Of a DNA stretch of 64,000 nt, positions 5,424-46,893 are shown piece by piece (within the stretch, counting starts at the first letter, position 1; each line of letters starts with the position of its first letter). The notes beneath the pieces were generated by a model, which made no database searches, was not told where the DNA came from, and saw nothing but the letters and a program-made list of their open reading frames with translations. Source of the stretch: a virus; the IMG/VR virus record IMGVR_UViG_3300042308_001616, positions 58,861 through 122,860 of that record, one strand, 5' to 3'. The translations under genes and the position numbers were made by a program.

Positions 5424-6653
5424 TTATATATTAATATTCTCTGACGCCTTTTTAATTATACCAAATTCTTCATATAACCTAAGATTGAATATGGCTTCTA
5501 TACTATCTCTGTGTCTAAAAGGTACTATGATACTATCATGTACGGTTGCCATTTTAACATCTGGCATTTGTTGCATCACATTCTTAACTATTCGGTTGAA
5601 CAATAATGAAGATTCTGCCTTCTGTAATTCGTAAGCAAGAACACGATAATCACCTTTTTCTTTTTTGTATAACTTTATGAAGTTGTGTATAGTTGGAAAT
5701 AGTGAAGAGAAAACTTTATCTGCCTTACAACTATGAGCATTCTTACCGAAAAGTACTCTATATGTCATCTCCTTTACTACCGATCTGTCATTATTACCGG
5801 TGGCATCCATTACATATTGGTAATAAATTCCATTTATAGTGAGATATTTGAAAAGTTCAAATTCATCCTGTTTTACCCATTTAGTACCGGAACTCTCAAT
5901 CACTTTTGTGAGAAAGAGTGGCTGACTATTTTTTATGTCTATCTCATGTGTAGGTTCTCCGTCTATGAGTAGGCACGTTTTGCGTATGAACGATTTAAGT
6001 ATTGTGAAGTTTGTGTGCATCCTACCATAATTATCAAAATGATAAAATATATGTTTGTCACCAATACACTCTACAGAATATACATTTCGGTTGTATATGT
6101 CTCCGTCAAAGTCTTTCAAATTATCTAAGTAGAATATTGCGGCAGATTGGTCTATCTCTACGTGAAATAAATCATCGACCAACTTCGCTTTAACATCTGC
6201 GTGTATAAGATCCGATCCTATATCGCCGTCTTCTACACGAGAGACACTATTCTTATATTTTCTGAGTAGTGTTTTGTCACGGTTTGAATACCTTAGTATC
6301 TTACCTTTTAGTACTTCGGAACAAATACTATATGATCGGGAGTTTCTTCCTGCTAAATAGTTTGACCTCATCTCTATCAATCGATTATCGACCAACCAGG
6401 ATATGTAGTGGTTATAAAGATGGCCGTACTTCTCTTTCAATATCGATGAATGAAGACTAAATTTGTTGTCTTTTTTGAAATAGTATTTTAGTATAAGACC
6501 GTGTATTATATCAACTAAGTAGGCCGTTTTTATTTTTTTATTGTTGTGTAGTATAGTTTTACAATCAACTAAGTATTGCATTTTGACTGGAAGGAATTGT
6601 AGTGTACGTTCCTTCAATTCTAGTTTTTCTCTTATACTAGTTACCGATTCCAT
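5424..6653 (-). CDS. Hypothetical protein (409 aa) with T7-RNAP / family-A polymerase-like motifs A, B, C (speculative)
   Basis: LLIDGEPTHEI (cf. T7 RNAP motif A FDGSCSGIQ), RSVVKEMTYRVLFGK (cf. T7 RNAP motif B RSVTKRSVMTLAYGS), ATVHDSIIV (cf. motif C ALIHDSFGT), in the correct order. Confidence 0.45.
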   Translation of the reverse strand: MESVTSIREKLELKERTLQFLPVKMQYLVDCKTILHNNKKIKTAYLVDIIHGLILKYYFKKDNKFSLHSSILKEKYGHLYNHYISWLVDNRLIEMRSNYLAGRNSRSYSICSEVLKGKILRYSNRDKTLLRKYKNSVSRVEDGDIGSDLIHADVKAKLVDDLFHVEIDQSAAIFYLDNLKDFDGDIYNRNVYSVECIGDKHIFYHFDNYGRMHTNFTILKSFIRKTCLLIDGEPTHEIDIKNSQPLFLTKVIESSGTKWVKQDEFELFKYLTINGIYYQYVMDATGNNDRSVVKEMTYRVLFGKNAHSCKADKVFSSLFPTIHNFIKLYKKEKGDYRVLAYELQKAESSLLFNRIVKNVMQQMPDVKMATVHDSIIVPFRHRDSIEAIFNLRLYEEFGIIKKASENINI

Positions 6654-21500: not shown

Positions 21501-22813
21501 GAATTTCCGAAAACATACCACTTAGATTATGGGACAGTGGAACAGGTACAAACAATATAAATATTTTAGAGTTTGGACACGCAACTGCGAGTCCTAAACT
21601 ATATGTTCCGGGTGCACGTATAAAATCTACAAATCCTGGTTCCGGTGCAACAACAGGAGCTCATTTAATATTAGAAACTTCGTCAATATCAAATCCAACA
21701 TCAACAACTTGGAATACCAATCAACTCTATTTGAGAAATGATGGAAATGTAGGTATCGGAACAAATACACCAACTTCATATTTAACAATAAACACACCAG
21801 GTGGTTCATTGTATAGTGGTGGTTCTACAGGGGAACATGCAATATTAATAGGTAGTCAGTCCACTGGTTCTGTTGCTGCATATATAGGAACCGACGAAAC
21901 ACTTTCCGCGATGTACATACAATCTGGTATAAGAGGTGGTGCCGCAACTCCTATACTACTAAACGCACAGGGTGGAAACATCGGAATCGGTGTGACATCA
22001 CCTTCTGCAAAATTACACGCAGTAACTAATGTATCATCAATTCCGTTGATAATAGCATCCGGATCTACAACGGTTGATTTGGTGAGAATAACGCAGGTCG
22101 GTACAGGAAACGCTTTTGTGGTTGAAGATGCTACAAATCCAGATACCACACCATTTGCTATAACCAACACCGGAAAGGTAAAGGTTGGAACGACCGTCGA
22201 TTCAATCTATTCATCCAATATATATTCGATATCAACGACATATGGATTAGAGGCATATGGTGATTTAGCAGGAGTATACGCACGAGGATTAACTTATGGA
22301 ATTGTAGCAGAAGCGGCTACTGATGGAATGGTAGTTGCAGGTATTATGGCATCTGCAACAAACGACCAATTTATGTATGGAGTATACTACGGTGGAATGT
22401 TCTCGGCAAACTCATCAAATGGTGTCAATTACGCGGTAAGGTTACAGGATGGATCACAAGGATTGAACAAAGTTCTGGTGGACACCATAGGTGACGGATC
22501 TGCCAACTGGAAAAGTGATCTGAGTATAACATCAATCATAGCTTCTGCATCAAGTACTTCTGATATAGTAAGAATCACCCAAACCGGAACAGGAAATGCG
22601 TTAGTCGTTGAAGATTCAACAAATCCAGATGCAACACCTTTTGTTATAACATCTACGGGAAATGTTGCAATAGGAACACAATCTACAAATAACACACTAC
22701 ACGTACAGGGTTCTATGGAACTCACCGGAACATTCTCGGGTAGTAATTCTAATTTCGTAGATGCAAACCTTATAACACAAACCGTTCTACTCTATATGTC
22801 GAACAACACTTAG
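15512..22813 (+). CDS. Giant collagen-like repeat fibre protein 2 (2433 aa)
   Basis: Five Gly-Ser-Ser / Gly-Thr-Ser collagen-like tracts (about 53, 160, 315, 240 and 200 aa) separated by globular beta-rich domains. Four copies of the ITQ.GTGNA.VVED.TNPD.TPFV module. Apparent TTG start at 15512; its N-terminal motif is paralogous to fibre 1. Confidence 0.8.
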   Translation: MARNPKYQIRNLSTDGYGRLVQVVNGVYYDGFGNILSIGSVGSSGIIGGSSGTSGLSGNSGSSGSSGTSGLSGNSGSSGTSGSSGYSGTSGSSGTSGVSDKYKTTTVHTMPVPSVDDIILLESLDTGLAYTVGQSIILAESAYDYLEGIVQSYSPITGDMYVIVKYVVGSPDGPDFTINIDGTTGSSGTSGSSGISGSSGSSGTRGSSGSSGSSGISGSSGTSGSSGESGSSGISGSSGISGSSGTSGSSGESGSSGISGSSGTSGSSGESGSSGTSGSSGSSGASGTSGSSGESGSSGTSGSSGSSGASGTSGSSGTSGSSGSSGSSGTSGSSGESGSSGTSGSSGTSGSSGSSGTGFDTISNPSDNRLLTSDGTTNAAVAESNLTFDGSLLTMIGSSNFGTSSGTQNLYGSVISNDSFSIGTQQFFPQGNNGFSVNENFDASNSTSQTAYHFTSGSNTKNIVFTLAKTGEYTTVFGTDGSSTSNKFVIGSETSNTVFQFKSGLGIQPINLDGGSVMFEVATNSLFAPNIPSGTTETDILVRDGSGYITYRSDLSLSGTSGSSGSAGSSGTSGSSGSSGSSGSSGTSGTSGTSGSSGSSGSSGSSGTSGTSGSSGSAGSSGTSGSSGSSGSSGTSGTSGSSGSSGSSGTSGSSGTSGSSGSSGSSGTSGSSGSSGSSGTSGSSGTSGSSGSSGTSGSSGSSGSSGTSGSSGTSGSSGSSGTSGSSGSSGTSGSSGSAGSSGTSGSSGSSGTSGSSGSTGSSGSSGSAGSSGSTGSSGTSGSSGSSGTRGSSGSSGSTGSSGSSGSAGTSGSSGTSGSSGSAGTSGSSGSAGTSGSSGSSGTSGSTGSSGTSGAQGPQGISAGQIYYFNMSMTASVNGYRSLSTTPLPNGGTYSIETLTGNESGHLVETFMTDPLGFSIIPGGTQRFHLHFLKGAVGDDIEAYVSIRLSDSVGVPIGPTLSSNKQYIGWNDSTTNVEVLTDLTLPTTGIDPTNRMLVSIYLDNKDSNSRTVQFHTEGTDDYSYVITSVGVVNGTSGSSGSSGSTGTSGSSGSSGTSGTSGTSGSSGSAGSSGTRGSSGSSGTSGSSGTSGSSGTSGTSGSSGTSGSSGSSGSSGSSGSSGTSGTSGSSGSSGTSGSSGSSGSSGTSGSSGTSGSSGTSGTSGSSGTSGSSGTSGTSGSSGTSGTSGSSGTSGSSGTSGSSGTSGSSGTSGSSGSSGTRGSSGSSGTSGSSGTSGSSGTSGSSGSSGTSGTSGSSGSSGSSGSSGSSGTSGSSGTSGSSGSSGTRGSSGSSGSSGTSGVNGIDSASFEYTYSTTTTASDPGSGFFRLNNLTMGSATSLYIDRFDRNGNNDLQNFFSSLTNYGSTNRRGFIKITKQNDLTWFQTYEFSATTDNTGWWTITINNVILDANFTNNDLCFISFNVSGPTGTSGSSGTSGSSGSSGTSGTSGSSGTSGTSGSSGTSGSSGTSGSSGTSGSSGTSGSSGSSGTRGSSGSSGTSGSSGTSGSSGSSGTSGSSGSSGTSGSSGSSGTSGSSGSSGTSGPSGSSGSSGTSGSSGSSGTSGSSGSSGTSGSSGSSGTSGSSGSSGSSGTSGSSGSSGSSGTSGSSGSAGSSGTRGSSGSSGTSGSSGSSGTSGSSGSSGTSGLLSLTGSTDNGVITLNGSIPNAIVESNLTFDGSILNVTGRIIASASTSTDLLRLTQVGTGNAFVVEDSTNPDITPFVIQGDGKVAIGTSSTVANLEVRANGANGILLGQDLAASGQSSRLFFSNGTDGQHIAILNSNNGGFDFRTLSTANVSTGTQRMTIAAGGDVYIAQSLGINQPTPTAKIHVVPGSTQSGLIVAGNSDQDMVRITQIGTGNAIIVEDNTNPDSTPFVVDASGNIGAGTASPSTKLHVFSTTSGAIRIVDGTQQNGYVLTSDANGLATWQVSSGGGSSLSGTINYVPFYKTTTTLSSTSSIQVSGDTVGIGVSFSNTGGPSTDYRLHVNYGSGTYGVLIEGGGGISENIPLRLWDSGTGTNNINILEFGHATASPKLYVPGARIKSTNPGSGATTGAHLILETSSISNPTSTTWNTNQLYLRNDGNVGIGTNTPTSYLTINTPGGSLYSGGSTGEHAILIGSQSTGSVAAYIGTDETLSAMYIQSGIRGGAATPILLNAQGGNIGIGVTSPSAKLHAVTNVSSIPLIIASGSTTVDLVRITQVGTGNAFVVEDATNPDTTPFAITNTGKVKVGTTVDSIYSSNIYSISTTYGLEAYGDLAGVYARGLTYGIVAEAATDGMVVAGIMASATNDQFMYGVYYGGMFSANSSNGVNYAVRLQDGSQGLNKVLVDTIGDGSANWKSDLSITSIIASASSTSDIVRITQTGTGNALVVEDSTNPDATPFVITSTGNVAIGTQSTNNTLHVQGSMELTGTFSGSNSNFVDANLITQTVLLYMSNNT

Positions 22814-34491: not shown

Positions 34492-36642
34492 TTATATTAA
34501 CTTTTCAAATTTAATCTTTCCACAATCATAAACTCTAAAAAGTTTATTTATTTGTGCATATTCTGACTCTGTCAAATATGTTTTCGTTTTAGATTTTTTA
34601 TATCTGGATTTATGAACCCTATTACCATCAACTATATACTTATAGTCTGGTAGACTTTCACTCACCTTTTCAAATCCTAATTGATAATAAAGATTACCAA
34701 CAGACCAATCACGATCCGCATAACTGATAACCCTTTTAGGTTTAAAGTTTCTAATAAAATAACTAAATAGTTTTGATGCACCACCAATTACCGTAGTATT
34801 TATAGAATTACAAAATCTATTGATGTTCCAATCAGATTCTGACATTTTTTTACGACCTTCGAAATGATCAAATGTCATCAAGCTAACTAATTGATTATTA
34901 AAAATCAAACCTAATTTCAAACAACTATTAACCTTACCCTGAATATGATTTTTTTCTAAAAAAGTCATAGCTGTTTTTGCATCAACTTCTATTATAGAAC
35001 ATTTTCTAGCATAAATAGTATTACTAATTTTATTCAACATATTTGAAATTTGTGACTCAATTATACTCCTTCTCATAACCCAATCATCCTCCCAAATATG
35101 AATAATACGTATATCTTTATTCCTAAAAAAATTAGTTTTATTTATGTGGTAATTTTTATTCTTATATTCACTACTGTGCCAATAAAGACCATTAAACTCA
35201 AATCCAATACCCAGATCAGGAAGATAAATATCTATCTCTAAATCATCTCTATAACCAGATATTACCTCACCATCATATATCCCAGTTATATAATTAAGTA
35301 ATTCTTTTTCCATTATAGACTTATTATCCCCAATAGGATAACAAATGGTACAAATAGGATTGCCTGAATTGGTTCTTTTTATATAATTGTCAACACCTAT
35401 TATAAATTTATGGTCTTTACCACAGTCACATATAAATAAACTATTCGAGTCAGAAATGTATTGAATATAATTTAAGTCATTTGCAACAATATATTTATTC
35501 TTTCTAAATTCTTCAGATTTTTGAATATTATCAATTCCAAATTGATTAATATTTGTCAATTTTGTTTTTTCTTTAGACTCATTTGTTTTAGAATAATTAT
35601 CAACACCATACTTTTCCAGACTCGTATTAACAACTTTATATTTAAACAAAGATGACTTAGAATGGTGTTCTACACCATATCTTTCTAAATTGGTATCTTT
35701 AGACTTCTTCTTAAAACTATCACTCTGATAATACCAATCAACACCATATTTTAGTTTATTAGTTATTTTAGTACGATTATTATACTCATCAGTCTGTGCA
35801 TAATATTTTACACCATATCTCTCTAAATTAGTCTTTGATGATTTATTTCTGAAGTCATCACTCTGATAATAGAATTCTGAACCATATTTTTCTTTATTTG
35901 TTTTAGTAACACGATTAAGAAATTCATCCGTCTTTGAATAATGATTTACACCATATTTCTCTAAATTAGTATTTAATGTCTTTTCTTTATACTCATCTGT
36001 TTGTGTATAATACTCTACACCATATTTCTCTAAATTTGTATTTATAGTCTTTTCTTTATACTCATCCGTTTGTGTATAATGTTCTACACCATATTTTTCG
36101 AGATTTGTATTTACTCTTTTGTCCTTTACCGAATCTAATTGTGATATGTGAGAAACTCCATATTTACTATTTATATTGTCGGACCATTTTTTCCTTACCT
36201 CCTCATTTTGAAAACTAGACTTATGGCCATATCTTTCTAAATTAGTATCCTCAATTTTTTTCTTTACTAAATCACTTTTTGCAACATTAGTAACTCCGTA
36301 TTTCTCTAAATTTGTTTTAATCCTCTTCTCTTTGGTTGATTTGTCAGATTGTGCACATTTAGGAGAACAATAATTTCTATAACCATCTAACCAGTTTTTA
36401 TTGAATGTAGTAGGATTACCACAACAACATAAAAATTTATTATCTATATCATTTACCCAATACCATAACTTTTCTTTAAAAGAAATATCTTCTATATTGG
36501 AACAAAAATCGTTTATTGTAGTAACAAGTTCTTCATAATTTTTCTCAAAAAAAGATTCACGTAATCTTGATGATGAACCATCAAGTATATCTAATATTAT
36601 TTTTTTCCTTTCTTCTATCATAAAGTATATATAAAGTAACAT
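34492..36642 (-). CDS. Putative free-standing homing endonuclease: Zn-ribbon N-terminus, ~12 tandem 22-aa repeats, Vsr-like PD-(D/E)xK nuclease domain
   Basis: N-terminus CCCGNPTTF...YCSPKC. Repeats of consensus TNLEKYGVxxYxQTDEYKEKT. Nuclease motif EIDIYLPDLGIGFEFNGLYWHS (E..G..WH as in Vsr/Tlr8p-PBCV-like HEs). Sits beside the major capsid gene. Confidence 0.55.
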   Translation of the reverse strand: MLLYIYFMIEERKKIILDILDGSSSRLRESFFEKNYEELVTTINDFCSNIEDISFKEKLWYWVNDIDNKFLCCCGNPTTFNKNWLDGYRNYCSPKCAQSDKSTKEKRIKTNLEKYGVTNVAKSDLVKKKIEDTNLERYGHKSSFQNEEVRKKWSDNINSKYGVSHISQLDSVKDKRVNTNLEKYGVEHYTQTDEYKEKTINTNLEKYGVEYYTQTDEYKEKTLNTNLEKYGVNHYSKTDEFLNRVTKTNKEKYGSEFYYQSDDFRNKSSKTNLERYGVKYYAQTDEYNNRTKITNKLKYGVDWYYQSDSFKKKSKDTNLERYGVEHHSKSSLFKYKVVNTSLEKYGVDNYSKTNESKEKTKLTNINQFGIDNIQKSEEFRKNKYIVANDLNYIQYISDSNSLFICDCGKDHKFIIGVDNYIKRTNSGNPICTICYPIGDNKSIMEKELLNYITGIYDGEVISGYRDDLEIDIYLPDLGIGFEFNGLYWHSSEYKNKNYHINKTNFFRNKDIRIIHIWEDDWVMRRSIIESQISNMLNKISNTIYARKCSIIEVDAKTAMTFLEKNHIQGKVNSCLKLGLIFNNQLVSLMTFDHFEGRKKMSESDWNINRFCNSINTTVIGGASKLFSYFIRNFKPKRVISYADRDWSVGNLYYQLGFEKVSESLPDYKYIVDGNRVHKSRYKKSKTKTYLTESEYAQINKLFRVYDCGKIKFEKLI
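35500..36340 (-). repeat. Tandem ~66-bp coding repeats (22-aa KYG repeat units) inside the homing endonuclease gene
   Basis: Visible periodicity in DNA and protein (TNLEKYGV.. x ~12). Confidence 0.6.
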
Positions 36643-36784: not shown

Positions 36785-38497
36785 TTAGTTAAGGAATTGA
36801 TTCTCATCAGTAACGTTAATAGTCATAAATTGTTTGTGTGGGAACCATCCAACCTCGGCAACTGCATACCTAGATCTTAGTAACATTCTTGGTGCAAAAG
36901 TTGCTTCAGAAATAACTGAGATAGATTGAGCCATTAAGTAAGGAACGAAGATGATACCTGGTTGATCAGGGTTATTCTTTCTACCTAAAACGATTCTGTT
37001 GTCATTATATCTCATGTATGGATCAACATAGATAGCGATATCTCCGATTGAACCTACAGGGTATAATTGACCTTGTCCGTTTAATTTAGACTTCAATGGG
37101 TTAATTGTATAACCAGCGATGTCTTGAAGAGCTGCAGCAAGACCCCCGTTTGTGATAAGGTATTGAGCAGGACCTACACGACCCTCAGTTGCGATGAAGT
37201 TAGATGCGTGAGCAATCTTAGTAATCAATTTTCTTTGAACTGCGTGAGTAGTTTCACCACCAATATTAGCAGAAGCAGCATAAGTAGTATCTAAATCGAA
37301 GATTGTCATACCAGCTGTGTATCCAGCAACGTTAGTGTTAGCAGCAGGAGCAGAAGCTCTGTTTAATTGTCCCATTTCGAAAATCTTAGCAACGATTTGC
37401 TTAGAAATTGTTTGTGACAATTCGTTAACAAGGATAGATTCCATTTTTTGAACGATATCCATACCTGTGTTAGCTTTGATATCTTCAATCTCAGTTCTTC
37501 TAAGTGCAGAAGATACTTCGATAGTACCAACTTGGATAGTCTTAGATGAAATCTTAGGTCCGATAACACCAGCATAAGAATCATCATCGATATCCCTGTT
37601 CATTGGATAATCACCAGACTGAACGTTAGCTGTCCAGTTTGCAGAGAAACCTGGGATGTGATCTTCTAATGTAGATACTAACTCGATAGTAGGTGTAGCA
37701 GTAACAGCTTGAGTACCAATGTTCTTGATTTGCGAAGCCATAGACTGAGTAGGGTTGAAAGAGTTTCTAGTTGCGTCGAAAGACCATGCAGTCAAAGCAG
37801 AACCAACTGCAGTGTGAGCAGTGTTTGCTTGTCTCCAAGCTCTGAACATTGGGTAACCATCTACTCTTGAGAATCCTAAGAATTCAAGAACTCCTACTTT
37901 ACTAGCAGATTCTGCTGGAGCTGTAGTTACGAGTGGGTTAGAAGAACCGAAACCATTTACGAATAATCTACCACCTTGAAGACCACCTGTAGTATTTGTT
38001 GTTCCTGCGGCAAAACCAGCTTCTAATGCAGTTTTGATATCAGCTTGGTTAGCTGGAGTTGTAGCCTTAAGTTTGAAAACTTGTGGTCTCTCATCACCAG
38101 AACCTAATCTTGTGTCATCATATTGGAAATCGATGTAAAGTAAATCGATTTTCGGACCTGGAGTTGGTTTAACAGCAACAAGGTCAAGACCAATAGTTTG
38201 AGCAGCAATTTTCATAGCTACTGGTAAAAGGTTTTGTCCTACGTCTCCAGAACCTGCTACGTTACCAAGTGCATTTGAGTAGTTACCTGGGTTACCCGCA
38301 AATGAACCAACTGTAGCATTTGAAACTGGACCCATACCTGCTACGTTAGAAGCATTTACGTATGCGTTTTCGTTGATTGAGTGAAACTCAGCGTATTCCG
38401 CCATCCATTCTACTCTATCACCAATGACACCCATATTCTCGAGAACTGGTGCCCATTTTTTAGTGGCTTTCGCCTTGTCTATCCTAATGTGTGACAT
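36785..38497 (-). CDS. Major capsid protein, T4 gp23-like
   Basis: 570 aa. Segment LLPVAMKIAAQTIGLDLVAVKPTPGPKIDLLYIDF resembles T4 gp23 LIAFDICGVQPMNSPTGQVFALRAVY. Gly/Ala/Thr-rich and GC-richer than surroundings (highly expressed). A TATAAATATATAG late-promoter-like motif lies ~40 nt upstream. Confidence 0.85.
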   Translation of the reverse strand: MSHIRIDKAKATKKWAPVLENMGVIGDRVEWMAEYAEFHSINENAYVNASNVAGMGPVSNATVGSFAGNPGNYSNALGNVAGSGDVGQNLLPVAMKIAAQTIGLDLVAVKPTPGPKIDLLYIDFQYDDTRLGSGDERPQVFKLKATTPANQADIKTALEAGFAAGTTNTTGGLQGGRLFVNGFGSSNPLVTTAPAESASKVGVLEFLGFSRVDGYPMFRAWRQANTAHTAVGSALTAWSFDATRNSFNPTQSMASQIKNIGTQAVTATPTIELVSTLEDHIPGFSANWTANVQSGDYPMNRDIDDDSYAGVIGPKISSKTIQVGTIEVSSALRRTEIEDIKANTGMDIVQKMESILVNELSQTISKQIVAKIFEMGQLNRASAPAANTNVAGYTAGMTIFDLDTTYAASANIGGETTHAVQRKLITKIAHASNFIATEGRVGPAQYLITNGGLAAALQDIAGYTINPLKSKLNGQGQLYPVGSIGDIAIYVDPYMRYNDNRIVLGRKNNPDQPGIIFVPYLMAQSISVISEATFAPRMLLRSRYAVAEVGWFPHKQFMTINVTDENQFLN

Positions 38498-38583: not shown

Positions 38584-40683
38584 TTAGATGTTTTTGAACC
38601 TTTCCATTATTGCAGACATTTCATCGTCAGACAACTTATCCTCTTGGATGAGTGCTTCGTGAGATACAAGCTTTTTAGTAGTGGATTCGTTCGTTTTGAG
38701 GTTTCTGGTTGACCAGAAATGCTCGATTTGAGACTCAGTCTTCAACATATCAGCTGGATAAAGTCTTGCTTGTGATAGCAAAGATTTTTTACCTGATTCG
38801 TTTAATTGACTCCAGATTGACTTAGTGTTTTCTGGCATAAGTCTTACTATTCTCTCTTCGAGTGTCTCAGTTGTAGTAGAAAGTGCCTCTGAAATGAGTG
38901 CAAGAACTTCTTTCTGTGTGAAATAACTTCTTTCGTTTATGTGAAGTTTCACAGCTTCTTGCTCCTCGTTAGTGAGTGCGTAGAAACTATCTACTTGTGA
39001 TTTGGACATAAACTTAAGAAAGTTCAAGTCACTTGTCTCGGAAACTTTACGTTTTTTAGCTTCTTCGATTAATTTATCAATAGATTCTGATAATTCAGAA
39101 TCTGAATTTCCTGTAATATTTTCATATAAGTCATCGTGAGATTCTTCCTCGTGAGATTCTTCCTCGTGTGCGTTTACTTCTTCAGGTGAAGTTTCAGCAA
39201 CACCGTTAGGTCCACACTCTTCTTCTTCCACTTCTTCTTCTTCTTCTTCTTCTTTTTCGTTATCTAATGAAGCAAAGTGATCAGTAAGAACTGGGAAACC
39301 ATCCTCTGCAGATTCGAAAACTTTTCCACCATTCAATTTCTCTGTAATTAAACCAGCGTAAGAAATAGTTTTGTCTAAGTTCTCAGCGATGTATTCAGAA
39401 TAAGCGATGTTATCATCAAGGTGCTCAGCGATGTACTCAGAGTAAGCGATGTTACCTTCTACGTGCTCAGCTAAGTATTCAGAATAAGCGATTGAATTAT
39501 CAACGTGCTCAGCGATGTACTCAGAATAAGCGATATTTTTATCTAAGTTCTCAGCAATGTACTCAGAATAAGCGATATTTTTATCTAAATTCTCAGCAAT
39601 GTACTCAGAGTAAGCGATATTTTTATCTAAGTTCTCAGCAAGGTACTCAGAATAAGAAATGTTTTTATCTAAATTCTCAGCGATATACTCAGAATAAGAA
39701 ATGTTTTTATCTAAATTCTCAGCAACATACTCAGAATAAGCGATATTTTTGTCTAAGTTCTCAGCAAGGTACTCAGAATAGTTAACTGCCTTCTCAAGGT
39801 TCTCAGCTAAATAATCATTATGCTTGATAAGTTTTTCGGTAGTCTCTTTTAAAGACTTGTTCTCGTTTACCATAATCTGAACTTTTTCAGCTAAGTAGTC
39901 AAGATATTGGACAACTTTAGAGTTATCATTGTTGAGTTGCTCGTAATACTCAATAAGTTGCTCCAACTTCTTAGGGTCCATATTGCCTTTAGAGATGGCG
40001 TTTTTGACTTGCTTCTTAGTGGTAGCGAGCTCTTTGACCAAGTACTGCGAGTAGTCAGTCAACTGTTGTTTGGTAACGTACTCGTTCCTGTTCATGTTGA
40101 ATAAATCATTTATTTTTGACTCATCGGACATCTCATATATCCTAAAGTTAGATTTCGGGTTATCGAGGCCAAGAGATTCATTTAGAACTTTCACATTCAT
40201 TTTGGCAGAGGCGAACCCCGGATCAGCCACAATGTCGTATGTGAAAAGCTTCTTCAATGAGACCGTGCCATCAGATTCAGTGATACCTGCTGCGCGTGAA
40301 GAAACGAAAAGAGGACATCCGTCATCGACGAGTGCCTTAGCTTCTTTACCCCAATAGGTGCTCAATAGTCTGATTTCGCCCGATACCAGGTTAGATTCCT
40401 TAACATACTCAGCTTTAGTGATTATGTGGGAAGCCCTGGAAAGTGAGGTGTCGAAAACATCCGGGTGGTCGAACTCTCCATAGACTACACCGAGGTTATT
40501 CATTCTCTCGTTCATCTCTTGAAGTGCCGGAAGGAATCTGTTAGCAGTATAAACCCTCTCATTTCTGTTCTTAATATCGAACTCGGTGAAGGTTCCACCT
40601 AAAACATAATCCTTGTTACCAGACCCGTTGCTCTCTCTCACAAGAGAGTTTGTAGAGTTTTCTACAATCAATACTGGTTTCAT
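38584..40683 (-). CDS. Prohead core protease (T4 gp21-like) fused to a repeat-rich scaffolding region (gp22-like coiled coil)
   Basis: N-terminus GEFDHP...SGEIRLLSTYWGKEAKALVDDGCPLFVSSRAAG resembles T4 gp21 (GELGHP). Middle has ~14 tandem copies of AENLDKNIAYSEYI. C-terminus is acidic and helical (EEEEEEEVEEEE). Confidence 0.7.
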   Translation of the reverse strand: MKPVLIVENSTNSLVRESNGSGNKDYVLGGTFTEFDIKNRNERVYTANRFLPALQEMNERMNNLGVVYGEFDHPDVFDTSLSRASHIITKAEYVKESNLVSGEIRLLSTYWGKEAKALVDDGCPLFVSSRAAGITESDGTVSLKKLFTYDIVADPGFASAKMNVKVLNESLGLDNPKSNFRIYEMSDESKINDLFNMNRNEYVTKQQLTDYSQYLVKELATTKKQVKNAISKGNMDPKKLEQLIEYYEQLNNDNSKVVQYLDYLAEKVQIMVNENKSLKETTEKLIKHNDYLAENLEKAVNYSEYLAENLDKNIAYSEYVAENLDKNISYSEYIAENLDKNISYSEYLAENLDKNIAYSEYIAENLDKNIAYSEYIAENLDKNIAYSEYIAEHVDNSIAYSEYLAEHVEGNIAYSEYIAEHLDDNIAYSEYIAENLDKTISYAGLITEKLNGGKVFESAEDGFPVLTDHFASLDNEKEEEEEEEVEEEECGPNGVAETSPEEVNAHEEESHEEESHDDLYENITGNSDSELSESIDKLIEEAKKRKVSETSDLNFLKFMSKSQVDSFYALTNEEQEAVKLHINERSYFTQKEVLALISEALSTTTETLEERIVRLMPENTKSIWSQLNESGKKSLLSQARLYPADMLKTESQIEHFWSTRNLKTNESTTKKLVSHEALIQEDKLSDDEMSAIMERFKNI
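39290..39815 (-). repeat. Tandem 42-bp repeats (14-aa unit YSEYIAENLDKNIA, ~12-14 copies) within the protease-scaffold gene
   Basis: Near-identical 42-nt units, e.g. CTCAGCGATGTACTCAGAATAAGCGATATTTTTATCTAAGTT repeated. Confidence 0.7.
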
Positions 40684-40816
40684 GCAATTGCTTATTTTTT
40701 GTGCGTTAGAGTATATATAACCGGTTTATCGTCCCCTTTTGATATACACGGATTTTTTATGGTGAATATTTTTGAACATGTGTAAACCAATTTGATTTAA
40801 TGAATAAAATAGGCGA

Positions 40817-41221
40817 GTGGATTTTTTACATATGATAATCACAAGAGAAATTTCGATAAGAATAACAGAGTCGAACTACCAGTATTACGACGACTTAGGG
40901 TATGACACCTCAATTGGTGAGGTAATCGTTATACCGGTGGAATTATTACCACGTGGATCACATCAAAAGATAAAGTGTGGTTGTGATGGCTGTGGAATAG
41001 AAAAAGAGGTTATATTTAAGAACTATTTGAAATATGATAACGACTGGGGACAATACTATTGTAGGAAGTGTTCAGAAATCAAAAGAAAAGAAACCCTCAG
41101 GAAGAACCATGGAGTTGACTACCCTATACAGAATAAAAAAATACTCCAAAAGATGAAACAAACGCTGGTTAAGAGATATGGCGTGGATAACATCGCAAAA
41201 CGAAAAGAAAAAGATGATTAA
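40817..41221 (+). CDS. Small Zn-ribbon protein with two KYG-type repeats; truncated paralog of the 34492-36642 endonuclease N-terminus
   Basis: CGCDGCG...CRKC plus RKNHGVDYPIQNKKILQKMKQTLVKRYGVDN. Its stop overlaps the RNase R start (ATGATTAA). Confidence 0.45.
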   Translation: MDFLHMIITREISIRITESNYQYYDDLGYDTSIGEVIVIPVELLPRGSHQKIKCGCDGCGIEKEVIFKNYLKYDNDWGQYYCRKCSEIKRKETLRKNHGVDYPIQNKKILQKMKQTLVKRYGVDNIAKRKEKDD

Positions 41222-43112
41222 TTACAAAGAGGGTGACGAGATAGTCGCACAAATTGAGTTCGGACATTCAGGGAATGCACAAATAAAAATAGAAGATAGA
41301 GAGTTCTTTATCCATAAGAGTAAAACTTTAAACTCACTACATTTGGACACAGTGAGAGTAATACTATTCAAAGGTCAGAAAAAAATAGAGGCTAAGGTAA
41401 TAGAAGTAGTTTCGAGATTCAAACAAAACTTTGTAGGAACTGCACAGGTAAAAAAAGACACAACATTTGTTGTTCCTGATAATCCGAAAGTACATGTAGA
41501 TTTCTATGTTAGAGGAAAACATGAAGCAGAAGATGGACAAAAGGTTCTTGTGGAAATGACCGATTGGAAAGAAGATTCAAGATCACCCGCCGGAAGGATA
41601 GTCAAAATACTTGGTAGAAAAGGAGAGAATGAAACTGAGATGAACTCTATAATGTATGAGTACAACCTACCAATCGACTTTCCTCAAGAAGTTATCAATG
41701 AGGCAGTATTAATCTCAGAAGTTATACCAGAATCCGAAATAAAGAAAAGAAGAGACATCAGGTCTTGGACGACAATCGGAATAGATCCACACGACTCAAA
41801 AGACGCAGATGATACAATCGGTCTACACTTCGAAAATGGTAAAAGACTAATCTCTATAAACATAGCGGATGTCTCACACTACGTAAAACCAGGTAGTGAG
41901 CTCGACAAAGAAGCATATAGAAGATCCAGTTCGGTATATTTAGTAGACAGATGTGTTCCAATGATACCACACAACCTATCAAATGGTATATGTTCGTTGA
42001 AATCTGGAAGTGATAAACTTTGTTATTCTGTTATTGTTGAACTAAATAATGATGGAAGGATAGAGGATAGTTGGTTCGGAAGAACTATAGTAAGAGTTGA
42101 TAAAGATTTCTCTTATGAAATGGCACAAGAGGTAATCGATAGAGGAACTACCGAAGTAGAAACTGAAAAAGTAATACTCGAATTAGATAGACTCGCCAGG
42201 AAGATGAGGAAAAGAAGATTGGCGGGTGGTTCACTCGAAATTGGTGGAGTTGAAGTAAAATTCAAATTGGACGGAGATGGTAAGAAACCGATAGGTGTAT
42301 ATCTTAAGGAACAAAAAGAGGCAAACCATCTTATTGAGGAATATATGTTACTTGCCAACCGAGAGGTAGCAAGGTTCATAAAGTCAAGAAAGTTACCTTG
42401 TGTTAATAGAATACACGAAGAACCGTCAGAAGAGAAATTAGAACACGTGAAGACTTTCATATCTGGTCTCGGATATATGATAAACTACGGATCAACACCA
42501 GAGAAGACAAAATTGGCGATAAATCAACTTATGAAAGATGCAAAAGGAACTCCCGAGGAGAACATCATAACCACTTTAGTAATAAGAGCACAACAGAAAG
42601 CAAAATATTCGACAAGGGATTTAGGTCACTATGGATTAGGTTTCCAACACTATTCACATTTCACAAGTCCAATTAGAAGATATAGTGACATACTAGCACA
42701 CAGACTTCTTTCGAGAGCACTAAACTCAGAAGGCTATAATAAGGATGTAAACTTCGGTGAACTAGACAAACAATGTGAATGGATTTCTAAACAAGAGATG
42801 GCAGCGTCGAAGGCACAGAGAGATTCGGTGAAGTACAAACAAGCAGAATACCTACAAGATAGGATAGGACAAGTTTTCGAGGGTATTGTCTCTGGAGTTC
42901 TCGAAAGAGGAATATACGTAGAACTCAACGAAAGTAAGTGTGAGGGAATGATTAGAATCTCAGAGATGGGTGGAAAGTGGACAGCATACCCGGACAAATA
43001 TGCAGTTATGAACGAGTTTGGTGAGACGATTCGATTGGGAGATACAATCAAAATCGTTATAAAGGCAGTAGATCTTGAAAAGAAACAAATTGATTTTATA
43101 AAATTCAACTAA
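41214..43112 (+). CDS. RNase II/R family 3'-5' exoribonuclease (OB/CSD domains, RNB catalytic domain, C-terminal S1)
   Basis: RNB motifs YLVDRCVPMIPHNLSNGICSL and HYGLGFQHYSHFTSPIRRYSDILAHRLL; C-terminal S1-like GIVSGVLERGIYVEL. An alternative upstream ATG at 41178 is possible. Confidence 0.8.
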   Translation: MINYKEGDEIVAQIEFGHSGNAQIKIEDREFFIHKSKTLNSLHLDTVRVILFKGQKKIEAKVIEVVSRFKQNFVGTAQVKKDTTFVVPDNPKVHVDFYVRGKHEAEDGQKVLVEMTDWKEDSRSPAGRIVKILGRKGENETEMNSIMYEYNLPIDFPQEVINEAVLISEVIPESEIKKRRDIRSWTTIGIDPHDSKDADDTIGLHFENGKRLISINIADVSHYVKPGSELDKEAYRRSSSVYLVDRCVPMIPHNLSNGICSLKSGSDKLCYSVIVELNNDGRIEDSWFGRTIVRVDKDFSYEMAQEVIDRGTTEVETEKVILELDRLARKMRKRRLAGGSLEIGGVEVKFKLDGDGKKPIGVYLKEQKEANHLIEEYMLLANREVARFIKSRKLPCVNRIHEEPSEEKLEHVKTFISGLGYMINYGSTPEKTKLAINQLMKDAKGTPEENIITTLVIRAQQKAKYSTRDLGHYGLGFQHYSHFTSPIRRYSDILAHRLLSRALNSEGYNKDVNFGELDKQCEWISKQEMAASKAQRDSVKYKQAEYLQDRIGQVFEGIVSGVLERGIYVELNESKCEGMIRISEMGGKWTAYPDKYAVMNEFGETIRLGDTIKIVIKAVDLEKKQIDFIKFN

Positions 43113-43113
43113 A

Positions 43114-43560
43114 ATGGGAAGGTTAAAGTCGAAAGAAATGGTCGTACACACCTTAGAAGTAGAATTGAATGATGATGAATCACTCGACTACTACGAGAGT
43201 CTACTCACCAGGTACAACCAATGGAAGGTATTCAAAAGAGAGGTCAGACTCACTGGTCTACTGAATTCTGGTAAGAAGATACAATTCGACATAGAAGACG
43301 CGAACCTACTAATATACACAGATATGGATGCCATACAATACATACACAAAGCAGTCTTCCGTGCAGACAACATAAAATTTATATTGAAAGACGAAGAAAT
43401 AGTCAGTATGTCATTGTCCGGTGAGATAATTCCAACATCGATGGGAACTTGTATAAAAGGAATATTGGACGAAGGAATACCACTAAAGATAAAGAAGTAC
43501 AACGACAAACAAGGTAGAATAATTTTCTACATAGACATAGAAGACGACAAAGCAGCATAA
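43114..43560 (+). CDS. Hypothetical protein (148 aa), immediately downstream of RNase R
   Basis: ORF; start 1 nt after the RNase R stop. Confidence 0.45.
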   Translation: MGRLKSKEMVVHTLEVELNDDESLDYYESLLTRYNQWKVFKREVRLTGLLNSGKKIQFDIEDANLLIYTDMDAIQYIHKAVFRADNIKFILKDEEIVSMSLSGEIIPTSMGTCIKGILDEGIPLKIKKYNDKQGRIIFYIDIEDDKAA

Positions 43561-43574
43561 AGCAGCATAAAAAA

Positions 43575-43602
43575 AAACCTCTCAATGAGAGGTTTTGTTT
43601 TT
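43575..43602. terminator. Rho-independent terminator (AAACCTCTC-AATG-AGAGGTTT plus T-run), bidirectional
   Basis: A8 run, 9-bp stem, T-run; lies between convergent genes. Confidence 0.65.
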
Positions 43603-43612
43603 ATAATAAGTT

Positions 43613-45346
43613 TTAGAATTCGAATTCGGCACCACCTTGAGCACCACCCTGTGCTGGAGGAGCTTGAGCACCACCCTGTGCCGGAGGAGCCTGAGCACCA
43701 CCTTGTGCCGGAGGAGTTTGAGCACCACCTTGAGCACCACCCATATCACCACCTTGAGCACCACCCATATCACCACCGCCACCACCTTGAGCACCACCTT
43801 CACCCGGGACTCCGGAACCGATAGTTGTTGCATCTTTGGTCCAATATCTTGCATTCTCTGCTTTCTCTTCTGGTGTAAGTTTGAATATGTGGTCCATTAT
43901 ATACTCTATGTGGAAATATGGTTTCTCACCATTCATAACACCAAGCATTGTTCCTACAATACCTGCTTTCTTCTCTAGGTTACCCAACTTTTTCCACTCT
44001 TCAAAGACCTGATTAGAGTAAAAGACTATGTCCATTTGGTTCATAAACCTATCATCTTCAATCAATTCTGGAAATTCGATGAGCATCTGCATCTTTAGTG
44101 GTTTAACAATTATCTCTTTGAAGTTAGATCTAAGTCTACCTATGAAGTTGTGAAACTTAATCTCATCTCTCGTCATCTCAGAAGCCTCGGTTACTAAGTT
44201 ACCACCACCACTTTCACCTTCGAAACGGTTTAGTGGAATCTTACTTGCACGTTTCAATGCCTGGTGAAACCATTTTAGCATTCCGTCTTCGTTTAGGTCG
44301 TGTCCCTGTGGTGACTTCAACTCCATTGAAGGAGAACCCGCATCACCTTCTGGAAACCAAATCTGTTTGTTGAAAGGAAGATGTTTAGAGCCATTGATTG
44401 TGAGTGTACCTAAAGTGTCATCCCACTCAACTTCCTCAGAGTAATCGTGTATCAGTTGACCTATCTGTTCTTCGGCTCTCTGTCTGGAAAGACCTTTAAT
44501 AGGAATTTTAAACTCCTGATAAAGTGTTGCATTGATAATGTTGAACATTATCTTAGTCTGTTCAAGAATTTTGAGCTGGTTGTATGGTCTTATGAGTCCT
44601 TCTACGTATGATGTCTCAGAATAGTCATTCTGTGTAGAGAATGATATAAAAACAATCTGTGAGTCTAGGAATATTCTTCTAAGTTGTGGATCTTCCGGAT
44701 ATTGTATCCAGAGGTGTCCTACGTTTGGTTCGTATGCAGGAAGTATCGTCTCTGGACGTAATCTATTGAATGCTACTATGTTTTTCTTTTTGTCGTCATA
44801 TACAAGCTCTATGGCTACATATCCATCTACGAGGAAATCCTTCATCATATTAAAGGCGGTTATACTATCTGAAAATCCATATTTGTTGTATATTGATTCG
44901 AAGTATTCTTGATACTTATCATGTATTTCTTTGTTATAATCCGAACTTAGTGGTCTTGGTGAACAGAAATCACGATCATCGTTATAAACAATACATTCAT
45001 CTGCAACTTGACTCACAAAGTCTCTTATCTCATCTTTTATAGAGTATTCTCTTAGAATTCTTCGTTTATCTGGATAAGACCTATCGAGATATGGTACAGA
45101 CTTCCTGTTCAAAACCGATGCCACTGCCCTGGATGAGAAAAAATCATACATCGAATTTCCTTTAGAAGCATATGGATCCTCATTGATTCCTATACCAACC
45201 TGGTTACGTATGATCATATCATCATAGTTCATTCCATGGTTAGAAAGGTTTCTAAGTATCCTATTAAAGAAGCCCTTATTTTCTCCTGAGTTTTGTATAG
45301 AACCCAGATTCTGTTCATTGTTGTTAAAATAATTATAAGAGGCCAT
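43613..45346 (-). CDS. Portal vertex protein, T4 gp20-like, with low-complexity GGAQ/PPAQ repeat C-terminal tail
   Basis: VSQVADECIVYNDDRDF (cf. T4 gp20 VSEIVSDAIVYEDDTEV) and LKWFHQALKRASKIPLNRF (cf. IRWFRQALYMALRVPLSRI). C-terminal ~70 aa are GGAQGG / AQAPPAQGG repeats. Confidence 0.85.
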   Translation of the reverse strand: MASYNYFNNNEQNLGSIQNSGENKGFFNRILRNLSNHGMNYDDMIIRNQVGIGINEDPYASKGNSMYDFFSSRAVASVLNRKSVPYLDRSYPDKRRILREYSIKDEIRDFVSQVADECIVYNDDRDFCSPRPLSSDYNKEIHDKYQEYFESIYNKYGFSDSITAFNMMKDFLVDGYVAIELVYDDKKKNIVAFNRLRPETILPAYEPNVGHLWIQYPEDPQLRRIFLDSQIVFISFSTQNDYSETSYVEGLIRPYNQLKILEQTKIMFNIINATLYQEFKIPIKGLSRQRAEEQIGQLIHDYSEEVEWDDTLGTLTINGSKHLPFNKQIWFPEGDAGSPSMELKSPQGHDLNEDGMLKWFHQALKRASKIPLNRFEGESGGGNLVTEASEMTRDEIKFHNFIGRLRSNFKEIIVKPLKMQMLIEFPELIEDDRFMNQMDIVFYSNQVFEEWKKLGNLEKKAGIVGTMLGVMNGEKPYFHIEYIMDHIFKLTPEEKAENARYWTKDATTIGSGVPGEGGAQGGGGGDMGGAQGGDMGGAQGGAQTPPAQGGAQAPPAQGGAQAPPAQGGAQGGAEFEF

Positions 45347-46035: not shown

Positions 46036-46376
46036 TAAACATTTTACACTTTGTGTTGTTATTATTTATGTTGAATGAAATATTCTTCATATTCAATCGA
46101 AAACGATTAGACATCAATTTCGAAAACAAAGATATTCTTTCGGTTAAGACAATAGATCTTTTACATTATATAACACGTGTAATGTCTTTTATCTGGACAA
46201 TACTTCTATTCATCACCGGTTACAAATTAGTGGCATCTATTTTTGTCATATTGGTGTTGCTCAAATTTTTGTTATATCACCTGAATGAAAAGATATACAG
46301 AGTATATGTAATTATTTTACCAATAATATACGTTATATTCTATTTTTCAGTTTTCTATATGCATCTCATACGTTAA
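46032..46376 (+). CDS. Hypothetical membrane protein (114 aa, ~3 TM helices)
   Basis: Strongly hydrophobic ORF. Confidence 0.4.
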   Translation: MINILHFVLLLFMLNEIFFIFNRKRLDINFENKDILSVKTIDLLHYITRVMSFIWTILLFITGYKLVASIFVILVLLKFLLYHLNEKIYRVYVIILPIIYVIFYFSVFYMHLIR

Positions 46377-46893
46377 ACCTTTTTAGGTTCTCTTCGGTTA
46401 TTATTATAAATTCGTAGCCTTTTTTATTACACCACTCTATCATGGTTTCCCATTTACTTTTGTTTTTGTAGGCCATTTTCAAATCATATTCAAATCCTTT
46501 TAGTTTTTTAGTTCCTTTCTCAGGAACCTGAAGTTTACCTTCACTAAGTGCAACAACCATGTTGTATTCTTTCTGTGGTTTTACTTCAACAACAACCTCA
46601 CGAAGTACACCATCTTTACCTCTCATACGGTAAAAGAAGTCGGGATAATACCTATGTGATTTAACTTTAGCATCACCATTATCAAAGTGTGTCATTTGAT
46701 AAGGTATTTCTAAACATTCTGCGCCCCATTGGAAAATTTCATCTTTCATATCGAGCCAGACCATTATTTTCTTCTCCCATGAGCTACGAAAGTAGACTCC
46801 ACCTTGTGTGTTAAGTTTGAGTACTTTGTCTTTGTTTTTTGGTATGTAATTTCCGGAGTTGTAGCTGGAGTTGGATGGCTTTGAGTTTATCAT
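46366..46893 (-). CDS. PD-(D/E)xK nuclease-fold protein (possibly T4 gp4-type head completion protein)
   Basis: YYPDFFY...GVLREVVVEVKP gives a D ... E-x-K arrangement typical of PD-(D/E)xK. Confidence 0.35.
   Translation of the reverse strand: MINSKPSNSSYNSGNYIPKNKDKVLKLNTQGGVYFRSSWEKKIMVWLDMKDEIFQWGAECLEIPYQMTHFDNGDAKVKSHRYYPDFFYRMRGKDGVLREVVVEVKPQKEYNMVVALSEGKLQVPEKGTKKLKGFEYDLKMAYKNKSKWETMIEWCNKKGYEFIIITEENLKRFNV

Follow-up and report, generated by a model that had tools for sequence, protein, structure and literature searches.

What is a gene for an exoribonuclease doing in the head-morphogenesis module of a phage, on the strand opposite to the structural genes, and how did it come to be there? 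The question is raised by a stretch of 64,000 nucleotides from a virus (positions 58,861 to 122,860 of the IMG/VR record IMGVR_UViG_3300042308_001616), which is referred to here, at its full length, as the window. Positions 41214..43112 (+) of the window encode an RNase R-type 3'-5' exoribonuclease of 632 amino acids (aa) with the domain order CSD1-CSD2-RNB-S1, as recognized by Pfam, PHROG and NCBIfam TIGR02063. By its layout, the gene is the second of a three-gene operon (a Zn-ribbon/DUF7487 gene, RNase R, and a gene for a 148-aa protein) that runs antisense to the head genes, and because this antisense operon has its own terminator, the cassette would be transcribed separately from them. The explanation that accounts best for the whole, and that is considered fairly probable, is that the gene encodes an active RNase R-class enzyme, represents an old capture from Bacteroidota, belongs to a separate operon and likely serves in bulk RNA degradation.

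The presence of RNase R in huge phages is itself already known. In the GenBank files that supplement Al-Shayeb et al. (2020), automatic product names label the homologues in LR745206 (annotated CDS complement(195382..197286)) and LR756502 (complement(71411..73351)) as 'Ribonuclease R'. The main text of that report (PMC7162821) does not discuss the gene, its truncation, its head-module position or its conservation. No study of RNase R in huge phages, or of a phage-encoded RNB-family exoribonuclease, was found in the searchable literature, and a comparative review of jumbo phages does not mention RNB enzymes. New here are the ancestral, fixed position in the head module, the naturally truncated architecture, the active site that is invariant across the clade and the nature of the two partner genes.

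The RNase R-type enzyme and its missing N-terminal region

The original prediction had described a full-length RNB-domain enzyme, and the domain searches bear this out, with a weak first OB fold. The RNB catalytic domain (aa 179-504, 41748..42725; Pfam RNB 1.4e-98) scores 330.6 bits against the PF00773 cut-off of 29.3 and spans profile positions 1-325 of 326. It is preceded by a CSD2 OB-fold (aa 85-157, 41466..41684; Pfam CSD2 1.3e-24, OB_Dis3 3.4e-11) and, upstream of that, by a weaker CSD1 (aa ~1-84, 41214-41465), for which OB_RNB stayed below threshold at 21.2 bits against a cut-off of 24 (E 2.4e-4). The C-terminal S1 RNA-binding domain (aa 549-628, 42858..43097) is recognized by Pfam (S1, 4.7e-9) and by alignment with E. 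coli RNase R. These domains all lie on the plus strand, and the PHROG match of the protein is phrog_13933 ('nuclease', 6e-131). The longest frame in the table of open reading frames (ORFs), 41178..43112 (+), would code for 644 aa; its start at 41178 was rejected, and ATG 41214 is taken as the start because the closest homologues (P0002-P0010, 81-89% identity to the window enzyme) are all 632 aa long. The stop codon of the upstream ORF overlaps the RNase R start in ATGATTAA at 41214-41221, so that the translational coupling to the Zn-ribbon ORF that had been proposed has a real overlap behind it. The RNase R stop codon is at 43110-43112 and the downstream ORF begins at 43114, one base past it.

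Alignment with E. coli rnb and rnr places the catalytic Asp cluster of the phage enzyme, D191, D197, D199 and D200, in GIDPHDSKDADD (41784..41813, +), where these residues correspond to D201, D207, D209 and D210 of E. coli RNase II. In the same alignment Y242 corresponds to RNase II Y253, Y301 to Y313, E375 to E390 and R488 to R500. An alignment of 123 sequences, consisting of the window, LR745206, LR756502 and 120 database clusters, shows all eight residues to be invariant in 123/123 phage homologues, which range from 624 to 650 aa and share 150 invariant positions overall. Loss of the aspartates had been named as the sign of an inactive scaffold; the cluster is intact, and the enzyme is apparently active, with no mark of an inactive scaffold in its sequence. 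Its residues and domains make the gene product a hydrolytic 3'-5' exoribonuclease of the RNase R class, whose active site is complete. A counterpart of the tri-helix 'wedge' is also present at aa 402-462 (42417-42599, +), aligned to residues 487-545 of E. coli RNase R; its 61 residues contain no deletion and are weakly conserved, with 13/61 positions shared with the E. coli enzyme.

Profile scores and phylogeny point to the RNase R type rather than the RNase II type. NCBIfam RNase_R TIGR02063 was passed narrowly (600.6 bits against a cut-off of 597.85), with profile positions 61-707 of 711 covered and the first 60 missing, and the RNase II equivalogs TIGR02062 and NF003455 failed widely (162.6 and 194.7 bits against 641.9 and 542). 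E. coli RNase II (rnb) has the same four-domain architecture, likewise without a helix-turn-helix (HTH) domain or basic tail, and identical catalytic residues; however, it shares only 21% identity, and in the tree the phage enzyme groups with RNase R instead. This neighbour-joining (NJ) tree comprised 71 sequences, 623 columns and 100 bootstraps. The phage RNase R sequences formed a clade in 100/100 bootstraps, and phage plus Bacteroidota sequences in 88/100; RNase R of Firmicutes and Proteobacteria, orf16 of Lactococcus phage Q54 and RNase II fell outside.

The gene has long been kept under strong purifying selection, in a large environmental clade of the largest phages known. In comparison with the related locus L001, the proportion of nonsynonymous differences (pN) in RNase R was 0.12 and that of synonymous differences (pS) 0.73, which is near saturation, and the ratio of the corresponding substitution rates (dN/dS) was about 0.05. 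Against L003 and L004, synonymous sites were saturated and pN was 0.22-0.28, so that dN/dS was computable for the first pair alone.

The phage enzyme differs from cellular RNase R at its ends. Residues 13-628 correspond to residues 87-725 of E. coli RNase R, so the protein begins directly in CSD1; the HTH domain that precedes CSD1 is not present, and the Lys/Arg-rich (K/R-rich) extension is absent at both ends, the C-terminus lying 4 aa past S1 without a basic tail. Both are accessory features that set canonical RNase R apart. The nearest cellular genes, with 41-48% identity, were found at 42 loci among 185,579 species genomes (one each) and are mostly Bacteroidota, with a few Chlorobiota labels. 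At 20 of the 21 cellular loci that were read, the ORF has 710-741 aa with an N-terminal KKKxR patch and HTH, and its C-terminal end coincides with that of the phage protein or lies within about 30 aa of it. The Bacteroidota enzymes, the nearest cellular relatives (for example those on the MAG contigs JAHEXY010000002.1 and JAKIVD010000002.1; ORFs of 711-718 aa), match the phage protein with 41-47% identity over residues ~10-629, have the same CSD1-CSD2-RNB-S1 order and in most cases end within 2-8 aa of it, whereas their N-terminus is longer by ~87 residues, which comprise a KKKxR patch together with an HTH or winged-helix domain. By this comparison the phage enzyme lacks only the N-terminal basic patch and HTH of ~87 aa. 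It therefore spans the same region as dHTH-K (residues 87-725, PDB 5XGU), a construct of E. coli RNase R with the same boundaries, the same catalytic residues and a full-length tri-helix region. The dHTH-K fragment has been crystallised, its Kd for single-stranded RNA is given as 8.6 nM, and a figure legend lists it alongside the full-length enzyme as degrading single-stranded RNA (PMC5714204). Identity to the E. coli enzyme is ~27%, and the phage form is natural whereas dHTH-K is a laboratory truncation. Among solved structures, the top match (3.6e-107, residues 41-628) is B. subtilis RNase R in 30S degradation intermediates (PDB 8CDU), an enzyme of 779 aa that has the HTH which the phage enzyme lacks.

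Possible roles of the enzyme in infection

The phage from which the window derives is related, as judged from its proteins, to 'Mahaphage' genomes of 634-642 kb (Al-Shayeb et al. 2020, PMC7162821). Its capsid protein shares 72-73% identity with those of LR756502 (642 kb) and LR745206 (635 kb), 53% with those of 636- and 735-kb genomes and 29% with those of Lak phages, and the contigs that carry homologues of the cassette genes reach 630-816 kb. When 40700-43600 was compared with 50,697 phage records by megablast, nothing was returned, and protein-level searches alone were informative. Bacteroidetes hosts have been predicted for huge phages of the LR745206 and LR756502 type (PMC7162821), and the host of the window phage is probably a member of the Bacteroidota.

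If the enzyme works like its relatives, the 3' end of an RNA would pass the CSD and S1 domains and be threaded into the RNB channel, where the four aspartates would hold Mg2+ ions, R488 and Y242 would position the substrate and 5'-NMPs would be released processively; the retained wedge region would let the enzyme traverse RNA secondary structure. Where phages are known to reshape host RNA, they mostly do so by redirecting RNases of the host, RNase E among them. In E. coli, the HTH domain is required to recruit Lon or HslUV to RNase R, and the HTH and K/R-rich regions jointly regulate the levels of the enzyme (PMC12320835). Since the regions that govern RNase R levels are missing from the phage copy, it would, by analogy with E. 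coli, probably escape host control and be constitutively stable. The role that is put forward, tentatively, as the likeliest is the bulk destruction of host mRNA and rRNA in infection, which would bring about host shut-off and supply nucleotides for the replication of a genome of ~0.6 Mb. The functions that had been suggested from the sequence at first, host RNA turnover and the processing of phage transcripts, are both plausible.

Several points weigh against this explanation. The regulatory role of the HTH domain is established in E. coli and not in Bacteroidota (PMC12320835). An enzyme without HTH may also be poor at destroying rRNA or 30S subunits, because in B. subtilis it is through the HTH domain that RNase R is anchored to the 30S body while it degrades the subunit (PMC12320835). 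The phylogeny comes from a simple NJ tree that includes few outgroups, and about 8% of the sampled relatives are without RNase R at this site, so that the gene is not indispensable there. Searches for T4-late (TATAAATA) and Bacteroides-type (TTTG...TAnnTTTG) promoter motifs, finally, assigned the cassette to no temporal class.

Among the other roles, action on phage-side RNA survives best, although it is considered rather unlikely. The enzyme would here turn over early or middle transcripts and so sharpen temporal switches, or it would serve RNA quality control at the 3' ends of tmRNA and tRNA or on non-stop mRNA. In cells, RNase R has a part in trans-translation as well as in the metabolism of rRNA and tmRNA (PMC12320835), and huge phages of this kind encode tRNAs, tmRNA, SmpB, S1 and S21 proteins and translation factors (PMC7162821). 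The cassette, being antisense to the late head genes with a terminator of its own, possibly belongs to another temporal class. However, tRNAs, tmRNA and Rfam families are all absent from the 64-kb window, so that no local tie to RNA substrates could be drawn, and nothing connects the gene physically with translation genes. In E. coli, the K/R-rich region also recruits RNase R to ribosomes rescued by tmRNA. Such a region is tied, further, to the tmRNA-dependent control of RNase R levels (PMC12320835), and the phage enzyme has no such stretch.

A more far-reaching form of the bulk-degradation reading, in which a naturally deregulated RNase R liquidates host rRNA and mRNA, feeds nucleotides to the phage and clears the way for phage-modified ribosomes, is unlikely; in that reading the constant operon might point to a link in function between RNase R, the Zn-ribbon protein and the 148-aa protein, taken as a catalytically dead paralogue of the prohead protease. 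An anti-defence role, in which host crRNAs, RNAs of retrons or toxin-antitoxin systems or abortive-infection transcripts are removed, is improbable. RNase R has been reported, in work cited in PMC12320835, to take part in type III CRISPR crRNA processing and to be bound by a phage anti-CRISPR, and a deregulated exonuclease could disturb RNA-dependent defence pathways; however, neither the cassette nor the window offers a defence or anti-defence context, and enzymes of the RNB family are not known to recognize specific sequences.

Position in the head module and origin of the gene

The placement of RNase R between the portal and protease-scaffold genes, on the opposite strand, is confirmed. The flanking genes are all on the minus strand and comprise a gp23-like major capsid protein (36785..38497; Pfam/PHROG), a prohead protease-scaffold fusion (38584..40683; phrog_207, 1.3e-30) and a T4-type portal (43613..45346; Portal_T4, 1.9e-57). 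The same order is found in relatives: capsid, protease, then the opposite-strand small ORF (the Zn-ribbon/DUF7487 gene), RNase R and an ORF of ~145 aa, then portal. It is kept at RNase R identities of 81%, 69%, 55-58% (four loci, one of them on a contig of 629,742 bp) and 53% (LR745206), which gives synteny in 7/8 loci checked by hand. The exception is LR756502, where the small ORF of the head module (L007 6263..6646) is coupled directly to the 148-aa homologue (5841..6263) through one shared base; the RNase R gene of that phage (LR756502.1, L006 7989-9929; 48% identity) lies ~155 kb away amid unrelated small ORFs.

IMG/VR was also scanned with an alignment of the small ORF, which avoids selection on the RNase, and the best 80 of 152 confirmed loci were scored. 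The small ORF was followed directly by RNase R at 74/80 loci, with RNase identity down to 48%; of these 74, 72 also carried protease and portal and 66 had a 148-aa-like ORF next. The small ORF was coupled directly to a 148-aa homologue at four of the RNase-less loci, and two had neither gene. Together with LR756502, these loci (L105-L107, L109, L112 and L137) make seven without RNase R, which fall in two separate places in the protease and portal trees, nested among carriers, and the deepest branches all carry the gene. On this basis the head-module position of RNase R is read as ancestral for the clade, with at least two later losses or relocations.

Since the phage copies form one clade that is sister to Bacteroidota RNase R, the simplest reading of the sequences is a single old capture of a Bacteroidota-type rnr from the host phylum, with loss of the N-terminal region, followed by vertical inheritance. 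A capture from Bacteroidota agrees with the Bacteroidetes hosts predicted for the largest of these phage genomes (PMC7162821). The 636-kb genome LR756504 carries an RNB protein of 601 aa (L055 5953-7758, LR756504.1) with 30% identity to the window enzyme, which falls outside the phage plus Bacteroidota clade and lies distant from the capsid gene of that phage; it may be an independent acquisition.

RNase R homologues in phages had been called uncommon, and genuine RNB genes are indeed rare among deposited records: RNB matches occurred in 42/50,697 phage records, many of them host DNA. Most RNase R matches in the phage collection were rejected as host DNA or unverified contigs, for example Salmonella whole-genome shotgun (WGS) contigs. 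'Staphylococcus phage ISU935' carries a host secG-est-rnr-smpB block, and a 240-kb contig labelled 'Acinetobacter phage MD-2021a' has rnr beside a tRNA cluster and prlC. PV200784.1, CAKLQH020000003.1, AFYI01000007.1 and others are apparently host chromosome filed as phage, and the apparent number of phage RNase R genes is inflated by such records. A genuine RNB-family gene in a cultured phage is orf16 of Lactococcus phage Q54, annotated as a 'putative ribonuclease' (DQ490056). It differs from the window enzyme in having 528 aa, in aligning only from window residue 147 on (~30% identity) with no counterpart of the N-terminal CSD, in lying in the replication module of a 26.5-kb genome and in grouping with RNase R of Firmicutes.

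The first gene of the cassette bears on how RNase R reached its position. This small ORF (40832..41221, +) encodes 129 aa with a Zn ribbon and a single DUF7487 unit (Pfam DUF7487 4e-7; PHROG). A GTG start at 40817 was rejected because the homologues begin MI(I/L)TREI and have 127-131 aa, and ATG 40832 is most likely the start. Its PHROG matches cover the N-terminal portion of homing endonucleases (profile positions 1-129 of 313), and scans with Pfam and PHROG for HNH, GIY-YIG, LAGLIDADG and PD-(D/E)xK nuclease domains detected none in it. It has 747 database homologues; among the 120 matches listed, identities are 74-99%, most of them more conserved than RNase R. C49, C51, C54, C77 and C80 are invariant in an alignment of 27 sequences, and the ORF is retained at loci without RNase R. 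A pseudogenised homing endonuclease was rejected on the grounds of the 747 homologues, the five invariant Cys and this persistence, and the ORF is regarded, from these patterns of conservation, as a stand-alone gene under selection. Its AlphaFold model was unreliable (pLDDT 52) and too poor for a fold search.

The small ORF had been taken for a truncated paralog of a neighbouring homing endonuclease, which does not hold up. The neighbour in question is a 716-aa homing-endonuclease-like gene (34492..36642, -) with about a dozen DUF7487 repeats, which comes immediately after the capsid gene, where the GC content of the window is at its lowest (0.26-0.30). Only the Zn ribbon and a DUF7487 unit are common to the two, with 35% identity over 63 aa (pairwise E 2e-6), and the domain type alone is common. 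The capsid and protease genes separate the 716-aa gene from RNase R. This gene is the element that truly varies: the window, L001 and L003 have it, and L004, L005 and L007 do not. In L004 and L052-L054 the place after the capsid gene is taken by an NFACT-R-domain gene.

It had further been suggested that RNase R was acquired by mobile-element activity, as its surroundings include sequences like homing endonucleases; in this account a homing endonuclease or another mobile element brought the gene in recently and the Zn-ribbon ORF is a remnant of it. The small ORF does share a Zn ribbon and a DUF7487 unit with the N-termini of homing endonucleases, the distance to the 716-aa gene is ~4.5 kb, the protease-portal gap is variable (as in L003) and RNase R of LR756502 is found 155 kb from the head module. 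Against these stand the position of RNase R, kept at 74/80 loci and in the same order at 48-57% RNase R identity, the monophyly of the phage copies (100/100), the saturated synonymous sites and a GC content of 0.36-0.38 that is like that of the flanks. The small ORF is moreover strongly constrained and persists without the RNase, and no nuclease domain adjoins the RNase R gene. The ancestral position and the matching GC contradict a recent endonuclease-mediated acquisition, which is very improbable; RNase R is, by all signs of gene order and composition, an old, syntenic phage gene and not a recent mobile insertion.

The 148-aa protein, regulatory signals and the rest of the window

The third cassette gene (43114..43560, +) encodes the 148-aa protein, whose predicted fold resembles that of a prohead protease (T4 gp21 / assemblin). 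The conserved catalytic Ser and His are absent: 'IKK' is aligned to the protease 'VSS', and His78 is not conserved in the wider family. A profile of the 148-aa family gave no meaningful match to PDB sequences. That RNase R itself forms part of the virion or procapsid, whether as a structural or as a packaged protein, is hardly credible, since the head-module location and the protease-like predicted fold of the downstream gene are set against the opposite strand and separate terminator, the wholly invariant nuclease active site, an N-terminus that begins in CSD1 with no room for a capsid-targeting propeptide, and the LR756502 gene far from the head genes among unrelated small ORFs.

The cassette and the portal gene converge on a bidirectional intrinsic terminator at 43574..43596, with a 10-bp stem (AAAACCTCTC/GAGAGGTTTT) and T-runs on both strands. 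The window contains 5 terminators against 3.8 expected, a slight excess, and only that at 43574-43596 is convincing. At the other end, a divergent spacer (40684..40831) separates the protease-scaffold gene (-) from the cassette (+). It contains a palindromic TATATATA at 40712-40719 and GGATTTTTTA at 40750-40759 and 40819-40828; both copies of GGATTTTTTA, together with a GTATATAT block, are kept in the homologous spacers of six relatives. The 10-mer GGATTTTTTA occurs four times in the window against 0.53 expected (10612, 38570, 40750 and 40819, +), and three of the four copies lie in the two spacers that flank the protease gene, two of them conserved in relatives. Read on the minus strand as TAAAAAATCC, it precedes TATAAATA or TATATATA boxes that lie ahead of the capsid and protease genes. 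Its distribution is such that GGATTTTTTA may be a phage promoter or regulatory element. A sigma-70 promoter scan of the window showed no enrichment (19 found against 22.4 expected).

Divergence within the head module is uneven. Between the window and L001, pS was 0.22 in the 148-aa ORF, 0.35 in the capsid gene, 0.73 in RNase R and 0.88 in the small ORF, and the 148-aa ORF occurs as two allele types that are only about 33% identical. The sharp contrast in pS between adjacent genes, with the two allele types, suggests recombinational mosaicism in the head module, in which alleles are shuffled among related phages. The protease-portal gap is plastic as well: in L003 it contains an additional 425-aa ORF and an M28 peptidase, and a DNA methylase replaces the 148-aa ORF; L052 and L053 have one more ORF of ~145 aa.

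Judged by its gene content, the window is a morphogenesis region, which also includes a T4-type large terminase, a collagen-like protein, a 2324-aa ORF, a glycosyltransferase, a Dam-type methylase and a TnsA-like ORF. In the scaffold portion of the protease-scaffold fusion (39365-39780, -), a unit of 42 nt (14 aa), YSEYIAENLDKNIA, is repeated in tandem about 10 times, and the same array is found in LR756502. The C-terminus of the portal (43636-43800, -) is a Gly/Ala/Gln/Pro-rich tandem repeat with periods of 27 nt and 12 nt, and the portal of LR756502 has a comparable low-complexity tail. Beyond the portal gene, an ORF of 175 aa (46366-46893, -) with a TnsA-like endonuclease N-terminal domain occupies the same place in all relatives examined, with 66-91% identity. 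The 2324-aa ORF (15839-22813, +) lies in a stretch with a GC content of 0.44-0.50, against about 0.35 elsewhere, and is preceded by a 1193-aa collagen-repeat protein (11883-15464, +); the two are probably fibre or tail components.

Overall, a gene on the seemingly wrong strand of a structural module, beside endonuclease-like sequence, invites a reading as a recent insertion, and this misreading is corrected here, as the gene is old and syntenic. Its truncation matches exactly one by which, in E. coli, RNase R loses a handle that its proteolytic control requires. Should the enzyme be active and stable in Bacteroidota, huge phages would have in it a simple mechanism of host shut-off and nucleotide salvage, and biochemical work would gain a compact natural RNase R.

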